From the IMG/VR virus record IMGVR_UViG_2563367002_000003: DNA of 52,323 nucleotides; one strand, written 5' to 3'. Below are positions 2,197 to 51,432 of the stretch, in pieces; positions within the stretch are counted from its first letter, which is position 1; each line of letters opens with the position of its first letter. The position numbers and the translations under genes were made by a program. This stretch comes from a virus (taxonomy: Duplodnaviria > Heunggongvirae > Uroviricota > Caudoviricetes). The notes under the pieces are model-generated. The model was not told the origin of the DNA, ran no database searches, and saw only the letters and a list, made by a program, of their open reading frames with translations.

Positions 2197-2959
2197 CGCT
2201 CATCGCCTCCTGACGCTATCAGACAACGCATTTTACCAGAACACTACCACTTACCGCATTCGACTTTAACCTGACCCATGTTCGTTGATAGCTCTGGATA
2301 TATATTCAACCCAAAAGCATTGACCTTATGGATAACATCACAATATCTGAAACTGATAACTCAGATTATAACATCTGTGATTTTATAGTTTCTTCACTCA
2401 TTTGTGTGAGTTCTGAAACCAAGCGAATATAAGTATTTTTCAACCTATCTTTATCGCAACGACTTACAGACTCCGATAACAGATAATGGCTATAATTATT
2501 GACATAAATATCATTGTCATTTTCAATGAGTGAGTTTTATTCCATGTTCAGTATCTTCTACTTTGTTTACAATACAGATCATAAATGGTGTTTTCTCATA
2601 GGGATGAAAGAGTGTTATCATTTTAATATTTTTCATTTTATTTTTTACTTTTTTATTACTATTTAATACAACATCGCGATCGTGAAAATCAAATTTATTT
2701 ATTTTTTAACCATGATTTTCCCTCTTATTTTTAAACTACTTTTGAAAAAATCTTTATCTCTGTGCTGACGCACGGCTACGCCCTGACGCTGACATTTTTA
2801 TTTTATTCATCTCCTGTCTGTTAAATAAAAAGAAAAGCACTCGATCATTGTTTGATCTCTTTTCCTCATGATGCTGAATTTAGATCCTATGTTTAAACAT
2901 AGTTTTTCCCTTTAGACATATAGCATTTGCTCTTAAACGTATAGGAAAACTACATCCTT

Positions 2960-3003
2960 GGTAGCAGCGCTTCGTGATTGTTGCGAACAATCACTCTGCT
3001 GAA
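2960..3003. repeat. palindromic ~43-bp repeat, copy 1 (candidate operator or structured RNA)
   Basis: GGTAGCAGCGCTTCGTGATTGTTGCGAACAATCACTCTGCTGAA; internal inverted repeat TGATTGTT/AACAATCA flanked by CAGCG/CGCTG; second near-identical copy ~138 bp downstream. Confidence 0.6.
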
Positions 3004-3097
3004 CAGGGCTTGCCCCTGTTAATATTGGATTTATCCAAAAAAGATCGCGTCGTAGACGCATATAAAGTTAAAGTAAAATTAATCAAGCAGTCCCGAT

Positions 3098-3142
3098 AGT
3101 AGCAGCGGTTCATGATTGTAGAAAACAATCACTTCGCTGTAA
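3098..3142. repeat. palindromic ~43-bp repeat, copy 2
   Basis: AGTAGCAGCGGTTCATGATTGTAGAAAACAATCACTTCGCTGTAA; same orientation and same inverted-repeat core as copy 1, ~86 percent identical. Confidence 0.6.
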
Positions 3143-3548
3143 TAACATAGTAGGAAAAATAACACAGATAACACCACTGGTGCCATTTTGATAAGGCACC
3201 AATCAACTAAAGAGAAGAACTATTTTCAATATTACATTCTTTAAAATGTCATCCAAAGCTTCGCTATTTGAATAATGAAGAAGAAAAATGCTCTCAAGCC
3301 AGCTATAGCTTAAAACAAAGTACGCACTCTTGGGAGTTAAAGTCCCGAATCCCGGTACTTAAGTTGATAACTATTCTCAAATAAAAATAATAAAGTGTTA
3401 TTGTATATATTCTGTAGCACTACAATTTTTATACGTAAAAACATCAAGTGTTAGTTATTTTAAAAAATATAAACTTTAAGTATTGACTTGCACACAAAAT
3501 ATAGTATCTACTTAAATGTATAACTAAAAAAATAAAGGAGTAAATACC

Positions 3549-4130
3549 ATGATAGAAAATAAGATACAAACTGAAGTAAAGAAATCAAGAAGAGGTCTCC
3601 CACGTCATACTAAAAACCCATTTCTTAATGATACAAGTCTACATACAAAAACTGGCGTCAGACGTATTACTACAGGAAAAGATCGATTAGCATTAGTTAA
3701 TGAGAGTACGGGAGAACAAGTTGGTAATGGTGGTTTCTTTCAGTCTATGGAAGTAGACAAGACACAGTTTGTGAAGCTTTATGTGGATGGCGTATCAGCT
3801 ATTGAGGGTTTATCCTCATCCGGTAAGAAAGTATTCAAGATACTGTATCTTGCTATCAGAGATAATAAAGATACAGATACGATATTAATGTCATTCGATA
3901 TTGTTGATCAAGATATCGTGAAAATATCAAGAACTACTTATTTCAAAGGTATGAAAGAACTTGCTGACAAGAAATTTATTGCTGAGACCATGATACAGAA
4001 CTATTATTTTATTAATCCAGACTATATGTTTAATGGTGATCGTTTAACTTTCATGAAAACTTATTACTTGAAGGACAAAAAAACTAAAACTAAAGAGAAC
4101 AAAATTAATTGCCAAGGCAAAACACAGTAG
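3549..4130 (+). CDS. hypothetical protein, possibly DNA-binding
   Basis: 193-aa ORF; strong SD AAAGGAG 8 nt before ATG at 3549; sits at the end of a 1.3-kb AT-rich intergenic region containing the palindromic repeats; function unknown. Confidence 0.6.
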   Translation: MIENKIQTEVKKSRRGLPRHTKNPFLNDTSLHTKTGVRRITTGKDRLALVNESTGEQVGNGGFFQSMEVDKTQFVKLYVDGVSAIEGLSSSGKKVFKILYLAIRDNKDTDTILMSFDIVDQDIVKISRTTYFKGMKELADKKFIAETMIQNYYFINPDYMFNGDRLTFMKTYYLKDKKTKTKENKINCQGKTQ

Positions 4131-8992: not shown

Positions 8993-9270
8993 CCATCCTC
9001 CAACAATCCATTTCCTTTGATATATCTTCACAGGATCCGTTTGGAACAATTGAAGTTCAACTGTTTTGTCATCAGAGACGGGGGAATGGCTAAGTTGTTG
9101 TTAAGAGTGTGAACTCGAGAGCATAAAAGTGGATGCCCGACGCGCGGCAAAATGGTAAAAAACAGCATCAGTAGTAAGAAAAATTGAGCGAGAGAAAGGA
9201 ATTTTAATGCAGGGATTTATGCATGACAAAATCAAAAATGCTTTGTAAGTGATTGATTTTGTTGAATGAT

Positions 9271-9332
9271 TGGCGGAGAGAGGGGGATTTGAACCCCCGG
9301 TAGAGTTGCCCCTACTCCGGTTTTCGAGACCG
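9271..9332 (-). repeat. displaced 3' portion of tRNA-Ser gene (att direct repeat, distal prophage junction)
   Basis: 62 bp matching the 3' end of the intact tRNA-Ser at 51343-51404 with two substitutions (GTAGAG/CCCTACT versus GTGGAG/CCCCACT) that are complementary within the variable-arm stem. Confidence 0.85.
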
Positions 9333-51290: not shown

Positions 51291-51342
51291 TTCCAAGTGT
51301 GATTTTTGTCACTGACTTAATGATGTGTAAGTGATTGAATTT

Positions 51343-51404
51343 TGGCGGAGAGAGGGGGATTTGAACCCCCGGTGGAGTTGCCCCCACTCCGGTTTTCGAG
51401 ACCG
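51343..51404 (-). repeat. att core repeat (proximal copy, within serU 3' end)
   Basis: 62 bp matching 9271-9332 except for two compensatory substitutions. Confidence 0.8.
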
Positions 51405-51432
51405 GTCCGTTCAGCCGCTCCGGCATCTCTCC
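51343..51432 (-). tRNA. serU: tRNA-Ser (anticodon CGA), serU; 3' portion is the phage-derived att core
   Basis: 90 nt, GGAGAGATGCCGGAGCGGCTGAACGGACCGGTCTCGAAAACCGG ... CCCCCTCTCTCCGCCA; long variable arm; anticodon loop CTCGAAA. Confidence 0.9.

Follow-up and report, generated by a model that had tools for sequence, protein, structure and literature searches.

The window analysed, a stretch of 52,323 nucleotides, is 100% identical to E. coli CFT073/Nissle by sequence comparison and is the serU (tcpC) island of these strains, a ROD21-like (EARL) integrative mobilizable island. The EARL family was defined in PMC6035254; the present island is tRNA-integrated and carries a P4-like integrase, a MobA/MobL relaxase, a TraD-like protein, type IV pilin genes and an H-NS paralogue. 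Its genes were assigned from the CFT073 annotation and Pfam as MobQ, TraD, pilins, TcpC, RepL, DUF4756 and the H-NS paralogue. When the genes were tabulated one by one against ROD21 the layouts matched, with SEN1988, a 1.36-kb gap and SEN1990-1993 in that island (PMC3198454). In uropathogenic E. coli, Salmonella, Klebsiella and plant pathogens, islands of the ROD21-like/serU type harbour virulence genes (tcpC/tlpA, H-NS paralogues), and hardly any of their cis-acting sites have been mapped. The island of the DanRI preprint is the leuX island, which differs from the serU island, and the "minimal hitchers" preprint makes no mention of the latter.

The region at positions 2197-3548 has a G+C content of 27-37% and lies between minus-strand genes at 1-1182 and 1234-2196 and the plus-strand repL gene, as in the initial annotation, which had described an AT-rich region separating divergent gene sets. 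The AT-richness is what bears on the putative role as an H-NS target, likewise proposed there. Its further description as intergenic, with no convincing open reading frame, requires correction. A decayed, frameshifted gene (Table 1) was detected by tblastn, with 94-97% identity to an 89-aa gene and split over two frames. ORF clustering showed this gene unbroken and divergently oriented in 19 related loci, and SEN1988 in ROD21 is 270 bp long (PMC3198454). The truly non-coding part is therefore approximately 2637-3548. In the literature the region has been treated as a "long intergenic region" upstream of SEN1990, guessed to be a possible oriT (PMC10655114); searches for CFT073 locus tags and transcription-start maps returned nothing useful for it.

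Table 1. Features located in and beside the region upstream of repL
Feature	Position	Strand	Description and basis
c2 pseudogene	2369..2636	-	Conserved 89-aa gene (SEN1988 equivalent); tblastn, RefSeq C_RS30675
Block Z	2740..2795	+	TTTTGAAAAAATCTTTATCT, hairpin GTGC-tgac-GCAC (2762-2773), GGCTACGCCCTGACGCTGACAT; 17-locus alignment
16-bp perfect palindrome	2887..2902		CTATGTTTAAACATAG, ~15 nt left of block A; motif scan
Block A	2918..2957	+	ATATAGCATTTGCTCTTAAACGTATAGGAAAACTA(T>C)ATCC, ~37 nearly invariant nt; alignment
Palindrome P1	2961..3001	+	Outer stem 2965-2969/2997-3001, inner stem 2974-2982/2986-2994, free loop
Hairpin H2	3002..3020	+	AACAGGG-cttgc-CCCTGTT; compensatory changes in relatives
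Box	3025..3039		TTGGATTTATCCAA, near-invariant, self-complementary; alignment
Hairpin H3	3036..3060	-	GCGTC-gta-GACGC (3047-3059) and TTTTTT on minus strand; intrinsic-terminator-like
Palindrome P2	3099..3139	+	Outer stem CAGCG/CGCTG
Predicted sigma-70-like promoter in P2	3115..3143	-	ATTACA, 17 nt, TACAAT; promoter scans
Hairpin H4	3168..3200	-	GGTGCC...GGCACC and T-rich tail; terminator-like, conserved in most lineages
18-nt direct repeats	3356..3526	+	TACTTAAGTTGATAACTA (3356-3373), TACTTAAATGTATAACTA (3509-3526); repeat finder
RepL-like winged-helix gene	3549..4130	+	Class 1, 193 aa; Pfam RepL, RefSeq, synteny

The non-coding module upstream of repL

The non-coding part holds a previously undescribed module of ~450 bases, in which block Z, the 16-bp palindrome, block A, P1, H2, the TGGATTTATCCA box, H3 and P2 follow one another in this order. 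The palindromes are its most invariant parts. These were the elements recognised in the initial annotation, whose account was partly right: they are two pieces of the larger module (~2740-3139), which also includes two covarying hairpins.

A search of other genomes, proposed with that annotation, found the module in 778 of 5426 E. coli genomes (72-100% identity; median of one place per genome carrying any copy) and, in contigs from one genome per species, at 29 loci from more than 15 enterobacterial genera. Mean column identity was 81% over 41 aligned units. Phage sequences and IMG/VR gave no match to the module; plasmid records gave only four, two of them chromosome-sized or megaplasmid, and metagenome contigs gave three. 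Of 30 informative loci, 29 have a RepL-like gene that is co-oriented with the module and begins ~500-1190 nt downstream of it. The adjacent RepL-like proteins share 21% identity between classes and differ in their recognition-helix regions, and the module is unchanged beside very different classes. Because the palindrome arms are constant between protein classes, P1 and P2 are unlikely to be sites for the 193-aa protein, and this protein, once suggested for gel-shifts, is an improbable specific binder. Some loci contain tandem arrays of 325-bp module units. Each locus has two to five palindrome copies in the same orientation. The P1-P2 spacing is held at 135-142 bp, though the sequence between H3 and P2 drifts.

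These alignments, which span more than 15 genera, show strong purifying selection on the module, and it is almost certainly functional. That it has no function, and is a decaying remnant or a selfish REP/MITE-like repeat, is extremely improbable. The window's lineage does differ at two positions that are constant elsewhere, 2953 (T>C) and 3112 (G>A), and has a pseudogenised neighbour. However, in more than 15 genera the arms have stayed constant even as the genes beside them were replaced, a pattern that contradicts this reading; compensatory changes are present, there are no target-site duplications or terminal repeats, and only two copies occur in 52 kb, with none elsewhere in the island. 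A dispersed repeat of the REP/BIME type, the possibility that had been named as refuting a link with the neighbouring genes, was rejected on the two copies in 52 kb, the zero in a further 18 kb and the median of one place per genome, and the position upstream of a RepL-like gene ties the element to its neighbours.

Protein-coding readings were also rejected. A recurrent 65-aa minus-strand ORF and ORFs of 23-27 aa inside the module were considered by-products of DNA conservation: none has a ribosome-binding site or a hydrophobic product, and 1-nt indels between units interrupt their reading frames. A survey of small ORFs at 12 loci for a type I toxin-antitoxin system found no conserved hydrophobic peptide and no Shine-Dalgarno sequence.

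The repeat finder reported a single family of 41-nt direct repeats, P1 and P2, with start positions 138 nt apart. This confirmed two long palindromic elements in the same orientation; their similarity also stood, with the figures revised from ~86% over 43 nt to 83% over 41 nt. Where shuffles lead one to expect 0.01 copies of the core TGATTGT-N5-ACAATCA, the window has exactly two; for the full 41-nt degenerate pattern the numbers are 0.00 expected and two present. Both results are in keeping with the view that the palindromes are non-random and functional-looking. With up to 2 mismatches and loops of 4-7 nt allowed, neither the window nor 18 kb of the island's left part yielded further copies. 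Each palindrome can fold on either strand into a two-helix hairpin, in which a 4x2 internal loop separates a 5-bp outer stem CAGCG/(T/C)GCTG from an inner stem of 7-9 bp (-14 to -16 kcal/mol; z-scores -2.1 to -5.4). The inner arms were invariant in the 41 aligned units and the loops varied freely; in the window's lineage P2 carries the G>A change at 3112, a site that is constant elsewhere. The outer stem is CAGCA/TGCTG in P1-type and CAGCG/CGCTG in P2-type copies, an A-T versus G-C covariation. Long-range P1:P2 pairing, though it is the minimum-free-energy fold of the window, is disfavoured by this difference.

Regulator site or structured RNA, the alternatives offered in the initial annotation, is still the right pair of options. 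A folded hairpin fits better than a symmetric dimer site because the outer stem is asymmetric (4 versus 2 nt) and covaries between P1 and P2. We regard as unlikely a duplex operator pair in which a repressor, dimeric or tetrameric, binds P1 and P2 and draws the 138-bp interval into a loop, hairpins having no role. In its favour, the half-sites GTGATTGT/ACAATCAC are invariant with a free spacer between them, their 135-142-bp separation is kept despite the drift between H3 and P2, and P2 overlaps a promoter-like site. Against this, the asymmetric outer blocks covary like a helix, one lineage has a 6-nt rather than a 5-nt centre in P1 and not in P2, and all spacings from 138 to 142 occur, with no helical phasing. 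None of the neighbouring proteins shows the conservation expected of the binder, and the covariation of H2 and H3 would be left unexplained. To our knowledge, on informal comparison, none of the consensus sites of CRP, FNR, Fur, LexA, MatP, SlmA, LacI, OxyR, MntR and others fits the palindrome.

Pairing across the aligned units was retained in 97.3% of cells, compared with 32-53% when the partners were slid, and 28 cells had changed on both sides, compared with 6.2 in shuffles. Double changes affected four of the five pairs of H3 and two of the seven of H2; comparison of the aligned stems thus shows H2 and H3 keeping their pairing through compensatory changes. On the plus strand there were 24 G.T cells and 5 A.C cells. 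The strand that folds could not be chosen by energy, the RNAalifold consensus energies being nearly equal (-25.4 versus -24.9 kcal/mol).

These hairpins might belong to a structured plus-strand RNA of 200-400 nt, extending from block A to P2 or from block Z to H4, with a function of its own. Protein or RNA would then dock on the palindrome hairpins, perhaps in an immunity of the P4 RNA type, in which complementary sequences that are repeated lead to premature termination. Several covarying hairpins separated by conserved single-stranded linkers agree with such an RNA, as do a 35-nt insertion tolerated in the loop of the block Z hairpin, a slight plus-strand G.U excess and the difference between P1 and P2 types, which favours local hairpins over cross-pairing. 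A boxA-like GCTCTTAA and a GAAAA-loop hairpin in block A also resemble a lambda nut site. We nevertheless consider this RNA improbable. No plus-strand terminator follows H3 or P2, the 17-locus alignment yields no convincing promoter, and ROD21 RNA-seq coverage is low (PMC10655114). The boxA 8-mer is not enriched (4 versus 2.9 expected), and its hairpin is without covariation and broken in several lineages. Rfam 15 gave no hit to 2197-3548 at the gathering score, and at E<=10 the single match was a snoRNA (E=1.6).

Block Z is near-invariant across genera in the 17 aligned loci; some relatives have an extra hairpin or the 35-nt loop insertion. In other loci three to four copies of the CTATGTTTAAACATAG palindrome, spaced 22-23 bp apart, are arrayed immediately before the genes of one repL-like subclass, and these arrays look like iterons or operators. 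The ATAG motifs of block A recur with a 21-nt period. Block A may contain a weak plus-strand promoter, the candidate being TTGCTC-18-TATAT(T/C) (TACATC in the window), and a putative boxA at 2929-2936. The TATAG-GAAAA-CTATA hairpin that follows is broken in the window by the T>C change at 2953. Nearer to repL, the 18-nt repeats flank a proximal repL promoter-like TTGACT (3483-3488), and the segment 3356-3526 was found specifically in class-1 repL loci.

Transcription signals and a candidate control region

The module is most likely a transcriptional control region, the exact role of which we infer from its signals. By their sequence, H3 and H4 have the anatomy of intrinsic terminators on the minus strand. 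H3 was scored as one in the window, in three units of locus L026 and in two of locus L029, and with its T-run was terminator-like in every unit scanned. Terminator-like sites in these three loci numbered 2, 5 and 4, against 0.5, 1.1 and 0.5 expected. Promoter scans placed a minus-strand -35/17/TACAAT site inside P2 at the same place in the window, L026 and L029. The A that creates TACAAT is present in 24 of 33 P2 copies and in none of 41 P1 copies. Together, the putative P2 promoter and H3 predict a minus-strand RNA of ~70 nt, running roughly from 3108 to 3037.

Our preferred reading, held tentatively at a probability of about 0.4, is that the module is a transcriptional switch or leader with convergent promoters before the repL, DUF4756 and H-NS-paralogue genes. 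From a weak plus-strand promoter, situated within block A or immediately before it, a long untranslated leader would extend toward repL, passing through P1, H2, the box, H3 and P2, and the promoter inside P2 would produce the short ~70-nt antisense RNA ending at H3. P1, at the start of the plus transcript, and P2, over the antisense core promoter, would serve as common control elements. A single conserved factor, a product of the island core or the host rather than the variable RepL-like protein, would recognise them either as RNA hairpins in the transcript or as DNA, extruded or duplex, and would determine the expression of the repL-DUF4756-hns gene set.

Several observations weigh against the switch. 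The plus-strand promoter is weak: its -35 matches at 3/6 positions, its -10 is TATATC in half of the units and TACATC in the window, and the promoter scan of the window did not call it. Inspection of the 17-locus alignment by eye gave no convincing -35/-10 in block Z or upstream of block A. TACAAT is absent from 9 of the 33 P2 copies, promoter-like sites were no commoner in the region than in shuffles at the three loci, and the predicted antisense RNA folds no better than shuffles (z -1.1, +0.7 and -1.5). The invariant box, H2 and the tandem 325-bp arrays of some loci are not obviously explained. The sole published RNA-seq for a related island, that of ROD21, has low coverage upstream of SEN1990 (PMC10655114).

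Antisense and leader regions of this kind precede replication genes in other elements. In the lytic replicon of phage P1, P53 is countered upstream of kilA-repL by an antisense RNA of 180 nt, and CopA/CopT of R1 is an antisense-RNA control of a plasmid replicon. Like these, the module is a long untranslated region with conserved stem-loops upstream of a rep-like gene, and a short convergent transcript is predicted from a promoter in the leader, ending at an intrinsic terminator. Unlike these, it gave no phage or Rfam match, the predicted antisense RNA is ~450 nt from the repL start and misses the most conserved parts, and the RepL-like protein is perhaps no initiator (PMC10655114).

The start of the untranslated stretch was also compared with lambda nut and Nus boxA leaders. 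The lambda nut site consists of boxA (CGCTCTTA-like) and then the boxB hairpin with a GAAAA-type pentaloop, and functions with an early promoter and N protein. Most module units have the boxA-like 8-mer and a GAAAA-loop hairpin, GCTCTTAA in block A being followed within 4 nt by the 5-bp stem. In contrast to nut, no covariation was seen in the block A hairpin, which several lineages, that of the window among them, have in broken form; the 8-mer is not enriched. No N-like gene and no promoter was found, and neither of the two remaining GCTCTTTA sites of the window looks like nut.

The par region of pSC101 acts through gyrase binding and supercoiling. It resembles the module as a non-coding region of a few hundred bp beside a rep gene with direct copies of hairpin-capable segments, but is not known to be related to it in sequence, and nothing in the module points to gyrase binding or supercoiling.

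Possible roles in replication, establishment and transfer

Another reading is that the module is the origin of a RepL replicon, in which it would supply a DnaA box, an unwinding region and structure, the class-specific repeats being initiator sites. The near-invariant TTATCCAAA/TTATCCATA is DnaA-box-like; TTATCCAAA, within the TTGGATTTATCCAA box, agrees at 8/9 positions with what we take to be the DnaA-box consensus. This 8/9 sequence is conserved and the region is AT-rich, two features of which neither is specific. The distance between module and repL is constant. Class-2 RepL-like proteins match phage O-like initiator families (PHROG 678 at 8e-8; PF04492 on homologues), and between the module and class-2a repL there are lambda-like arrays, four 16-bp palindromes at 22-23-bp spacing and an AT-rich stretch. 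Related loci thus resemble lambda-type origins, in which such elements precede an O-like gene, and one copy of the 16-bp palindrome flanks block A in the window. The 41-nt palindromes, however, have another sequence than these 16-bp elements, are paired 138 bp apart and are constant across protein classes.

An origin is nevertheless very unlikely. The window has no iteron array, the same module stands beside very different RepL classes, and the Pfam RepL match of the window's 193-aa protein is weak (E=1.2e-5). Nor do the palindromes behave as iterons, as they are identical beside proteins of 21% identity and the class-specific repeats are elsewhere in the region. ROD21 is single-copy, and deletion of its class-2a gene SEN1990 altered neither copy number nor the excised circle (PMC10655114). 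As the deletion spares copy number and slightly raises SEN1991 (PMC10655114), there is a hint that SEN1990 acts as a regulator rather than as a replication initiator, which is compatible with the switch reading.

The hairpins might instead act in single-stranded DNA, P1, H2, H3 and P2 folding in a transferred or displaced strand and, like sso, ssi or Frpo elements, serving to prime synthesis or to start early transcription. Complementary-strand synthesis, or early expression of establishment genes such as the H-NS paralogue, would follow. Covarying hairpins that adjoin sequence-invariant single-stranded linkers, their asymmetric internal loop, and the tandem modules of some loci, as with ssi signals in plasmids, are consistent with such an element, as is the weak transcription of the double-stranded ROD21 form (PMC10655114). 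By analogy with RSF1010 the transferred strand should be the template strand of mobQ, and therefore that of repL, DUF4756 and hns, as expected for early genes templated by the T-strand. The strand assignment is itself indirect, however, and the hairpins are too short for a -35 plus a -10. The module is not in a leading position, since it would enter only after ~13 of 22 kb, and if the minus strand is transferred the minus-strand promoter and terminators would be irrelevant. We consider this single-stranded role rather unlikely.

A further, speculative proposal of low probability is that the module is an establishment switch for mobilizable islands, whose hairpins would act either in the transferred strand as it arrives or in a leader RNA during its synthesis. 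If the RNA is the acting form, the two self-complementary palindromes would pair or bring in a factor, by analogy with P4-type RNA immunity. While the island resides in the chromosome, the winged-helix regulator, DUF4756 and the island's H-NS paralogue would be silent, and they would be switched on only briefly, when the island enters a cell or is excised. If the module is an on/off switch or an establishment signal, this would explain how the islands are silent yet transferable, and would make the module a short sequence tag for recognising the family, carried by ~14% of complete E. coli genomes. What is new here is a testable anatomy of invariant hairpins, covarying stems, a predicted antisense unit and class-specific repeats near repL.

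That the palindromes or block Z form the nick region for the island's MOBQ relaxase, that is, an oriT, was considered with the MOBQ nick-core consensus TAAGTGCGCCCT taken from PMC3832669 and verified against plasmids. The relaxase is RSF1010-like (29% identity, E=1e-19). The minus-strand family consensus ACAATCAC-(T/G)AAGTGCTGCT places an inverted repeat against 7/12 of the core, and block Z on the plus strand reads hairpin-GGCTACGCCCT. Transcription is low, and the ROD21 authors suggested an oriT in the region (PMC10655114). The MOBQ oriT of RSF1010/R1162 is an inverted repeat followed by TAAGTGCG/CCCT. On the minus strand of the module, (T/G)AAGTGC likewise lies directly beside an inverted repeat whose arms are conserved, and the relaxase is a MobA/MobL homologue; the module differs in matching 7/12 core bases in the family and fewer in the window, in its several tandem copies and in its distance of 7 kb from the relaxase gene.

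Such an oriT is very improbable, and an RSF1010-like one at P1/P2 or block Z was rejected on its partial motif matches and on a better candidate near mobQ. The palindrome flanks in the window, CGAAGCGC and TGAACCGC, match the core poorly, and the best 12-mer in the whole island reaches at most 9/12, the chance level. Two to five diverged copies in the same orientation are stably kept in many genera, which speaks against oriT because functional tandem nick sites should delete the interval at each transfer. Literature on IncI/IncP nick sequences yielded only unrelated papers. The module is ~7 kb from mobQ, whereas the better-placed candidate is in the traD-mobQ gap, at 2200560-2201203 of CFT073; the region upstream of repL is thereby set apart from it. 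The candidate lies ~140 nt upstream of mobQ and consists of an 8-bp inverted repeat abutting TAGGTGGGCATT, on the strand that RSF1010 predicts. It is as conserved and widespread as the module (787 versus 778 genomes).

Anatomy and distribution of the palindromic module

The two palindromes described in the initial annotation (P1 and P2) were recovered with a repeat finder, which gave 41 nt, 83% identity and a distance of 138 nt, and the surrounding region is, as had been stated, AT-rich and placed between divergent genes. The palindrome core occurs twice in the window against 0.01 expected, and a search allowing 2 mismatches gave no extra copies in the window, nor in 18 kb from the island's left part. 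The fold of each copy is a two-helix hairpin with a 4x2 internal loop between the helices. The statement that the region holds no convincing ORF needs correction. A conserved 89-aa gene, the equivalent of SEN1988 in the island ROD21, is present there in frameshifted form; the gene is intact in 19 related loci and had no family match in NCBIfam or PHROGs.

Other genomes were searched for the element. With window 2850-3250 as query, a sensitive search returned module matches in 778 of 5426 complete E. coli genomes, all chromosomal, at 72-100% identity. In divergent matches the conserved core stops exactly at the end of P2. Three divergent loci were annotated, and in all three a gene annotated repL follows the core at a distance of 360-400 bp; RepL of two of them is 21% identical to the window protein, with the non-coding core aligning at ~83%. 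Scanning one genome per species for the exact pattern gave 29 loci with both palindromes (Pectobacterium, Dickeya, Brenneria, Serratia, Photorhabdus, Erwinia, Salmonella, Citrobacter, Klebsiella, Enterobacter, Kluyvera, Cedecea, Pluralibacter, Apirhabdus and Biostraticola). MAG contigs contributed two more loci. Loci L008 (MAG labelled Bacillota) and L027 (MAG labelled Suipraeoptans) are short contigs of enterobacterial island sequence ~80% identical to E. coli, and their Firmicutes assignment is probably binning contamination.

A profile search defined a unit of ~160 nt consisting, in order, of block A, P1, hairpin H2, a TGGATTTATCCA box, an A-run and hairpin H3; P2 follows after ~40 nt and is without a block A of its own. 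Mean column identity across 41 aligned units was 81%. Several loci have 2-4 tandem copies of the unit at a period of ~325 bp. Such tandem units were seen in L026, L029, L031, L019, L014, L013, L006, L004 and L008, with a ~165-nt spacer carrying a block Z-like hairpin; the copies have diverged by 10-20%, and the arrays are therefore old.

Features of the module and its surroundings (window coordinates unless a locus is named)
Feature	Position	Strand	Description
Frameshifted 89-aa gene	2369-2636	-	SEN1988 equivalent
Block Z	2740-2795		near-invariant, upstream of unit; one or two small G+C-rich hairpins
CTATGTTYRAACATAG	2887-2902		16-bp perfect palindrome, single copy, ~15 nt left of block A
Block A	2918-2957
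P1	2961-3001		palindrome
H2	3002-3020		hairpin
H3	3047-3059		hairpin; 3036-3060 with T-run
H3-P2 spacer	3061-3098
P2	3099-3139		palindrome
Predicted RNA	roughly 3108 to 3037	-	~70 nt
H4	3168-3200		hairpin, right of P2
repL	3549-4130	+	RepL-like, 193 aa, class 1
serU insertion	9333-51334		~42 kb; flanks 9262-9332 and 51335-51432
Tandem units	L026 4264-5480
CTATGTTYRAACATAG arrays	L026 5625-5710; L029 4785-4870; L002 7411-7494; others
oriT candidate	L034 15040-15110 (CFT073 2201040-2201110)	-	ACACTGC-gta-GCAGTGT abutting TAGGTGGGCATT, ~140 nt upstream of mobQ; outside window

The finding is real and more substantial than the initial annotation could show: the module is a deeply conserved, previously undescribed, structured non-coding element. 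Its general kind is known, namely the cis-acting control or hairpin regions of mobile elements, and it matches no described family. There was no match in Rfam or among phage sequences and IMG/VR contigs, and no small toxin-like ORF in the module; neither the palindromes nor the module were found described in the searchable literature.

Covariation, transcription signals and probable role

The inner arms of the palindrome (GTGATTGT/ACAATCAC) are invariant in essentially all copies and the 5-6 nt at the centre vary freely. P1-type copies have CAGCA/TGCTG as outer stem and P2-type copies CAGCG/CGCTG, and both G.T and A.C intermediates were found. For the structure comprising P1, H2, the box and H3, 97.3% of cells were paired against 32-53% with slid partners, and double-sided changes numbered 28 cells against 6.2 in shuffles; compensatory changes affected 4 of 5 pairs in H3 and 2 of 7 in H2. 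That the module has no function is accordingly given hardly any credence. The asymmetric, covarying outer stem favours recognition of the hairpins, as RNA or as extruded DNA, over recognition of duplex DNA; a pure duplex operator pair is considered improbable, and a single-stranded-DNA establishment or priming element, though itself unlikely, is placed just before it. On the plus strand 24 G.T were counted against 5 A.C cells, many of them from related sequences, and consensus fold energies were equal on both strands (-25.4 and -24.9 kcal/mol), so that either strand may be the one that folds. A stand-alone structured RNA is regarded as less likely again, followed by a replication origin, an oriT and, last, absence of function.

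In the CFT073/Nissle lineage block A carries T>C at 2953 (CTATAT>CTACAT) and the P2 arm G>A at 3112 (GTGATTGT>ATGATTGT). Both positions are invariant in every other copy, which suggests relaxed constraint in this lineage. Because of these changes, and since the left neighbour is a pseudogene, the window's copy may be partly decayed.

Terminator-like sites were found in excess in scans of three loci (2, 5 and 4 against 0.5, 1.1 and 0.5 expected). Every unit examined has a T-run after H3 on the minus strand, and H3 was called terminator-like in three loci; H4 is also terminator-like on this strand. A promoter scan located a minus-strand -35/17/TACAAT site inside P2, between H4 and H3, in the window, L026 and L029. 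Of 33 P2 copies, 24 have the A that creates TACAAT in the arm; of 41 P1 copies, none does. From this site a minus-strand RNA of ~70 nt is predicted, the fold of which is unremarkable. A weak plus-strand promoter candidate (TTGCTC, 18 nt, TATAT(T/C)) was read from the unit alignment in block A and would make the first base of P1 the transcription start; it was not called by the promoter scanner, and promoter-like sites as a class were not enriched in the three loci scanned. The otherwise variable H3-P2 spacer keeps a purine-rich motif, (A/G)GGAAAACAAT(T), which on the predicted minus-strand RNA would be pyrimidine-rich and anti-Shine-Dalgarno-like, UUUUCCU(C/U).

The simplest reading that uses most of this anatomy, to which a probability of roughly 0.4 is assigned, is that the module controls transcription of the repL-DUF4756-hns gene set. 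It would have convergent promoters and produce a short antisense RNA, with P1 and P2 as common control elements that a factor conserved across islands would recognise. The RepL-like protein is an unlikely binder of the palindromes, since the binder would be conserved and the RepL-like protein is variable.

RepL-like neighbours, replication and transfer

All ORFs around the module were clustered. Of 30 loci with enough sequence, 29 have a co-oriented repL-like gene whose start is 500-1190 nt downstream of the unit. The left neighbour varies: in some loci it is the 89-aa gene, in others an oppositely oriented second repL-like gene. This second gene (~210-268 aa, minus strand, ~650-1480 nt left of the module) was seen in eight loci (L006, L007, L012, L014, L017, L018, L021 and L032), where the module is flanked by repL-like genes that diverge from it on both sides. 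The proteins fall into class 1 (~190 aa) and class 2 (233-265 aa). The window protein is a bare match to Pfam RepL (E=1.2e-5); class-2 homologues carry PF04492 (phage O), and names vary by source (MarR, "replication protein"). As the RefSeq name "replication/maintenance protein RepL" covers very different classes, judged from homologues P0006, P0008, P0009, P0031 and P0035, the annotation is unreliable.

At other loci CTATGTTYRAACATAG forms arrays of 3-4 copies with 22-23-bp spacing ~100 bp upstream of one repL-like subclass, the last two copies giving a plus-strand hairpin followed by TTTTTT. The arrays look like lambda-O-type iterons, or an autoregulatory operator array also serving as terminator. 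A replication origin would agree with lambda-like arrays of four 16-bp palindromes before class-2a repL genes at other loci, with the O-like class-2 proteins and with a DnaA-box-like sequence in the module. It is nevertheless doubtful, as ROD21 is single-copy and deletion of SEN1990, the ROD21 homologue of repL, leaves copy number and the quantity of excised circle unchanged (PMC10655114). The same study noted the long non-coding region upstream of SEN1990 homologues, with low RNA-seq coverage, and suggested as a guess that an oriT might lie there.

For a MOBQ oriT at the palindrome, the minus strand has an inverted repeat and then (T/G)AAGTGCTGCT, resembling the MOBQ nick core TAAGTGCGCCCT (PMC3832669), and the island relaxase is 29% identical to RSF1010 MobA; the RSF1010 sequence and orientation were verified against plasmids. 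However, the window copies match the nick core poorly (island-wide best <=9/12), several same-orientation copies are stably kept, and the traD-mobQ gap has its own candidate, in which an 8-bp inverted repeat directly adjoins TAGGTGGGCATT on the strand that analogy predicts. That candidate is conserved, with invariant sequence following it in divergent islands, and equally widespread in E. coli (787 genomes against 778 for the module). It is the best candidate oriT of the island, and one at the palindromes is very doubtful.

Host island and the insertion at serU

Region 2197-3548 is 100% identical to CFT073, Nissle 1917 and ~175 further complete E. coli genomes, and belongs, in CFT073, to the serU island, where the genes run integrase, pilV, pilin, traD-like, mobQ, tcpC, ..., ComEA-like, 320-aa hypothetical, the region, repL, hypothetical, DUF4756, H-NS paralogue, ..., AlpA-like HTH, DUF6387 and tRNA-Ser. 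This is the gene set that defines EARL (Enterobacteriaceae-associated ROD21-like) islands (PMC6035254), and the module is diagnostic of this clinically relevant island family. ROD21 and the CFT073 island have been aligned gene by gene (Table 1 of PMC3198454), with SEN1986 = c2406, SEN1992 = c2410 and SEN1993 = c2411. ROD21 runs SEN1986, SEN1988 (270 bp), a 1.36-kb gap, SEN1990 (735 bp), SEN1991, SEN1992 and SEN1993, and the gap holds one doubtful 300-bp ORF (PMC3198454).

Relative to CFT073, the sequence of which resumes at 51335, the ~42-kb insertion comes after the island, between it and tRNA-Ser(CGA). Its contents include three tRNAs (Arg, Arg, Met), STnc100, sok and DicF, so that it resembles a lambdoid prophage inserted at serU in tandem with the island. 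Each junction has a copy of ~70 bp from the end of the tRNA.
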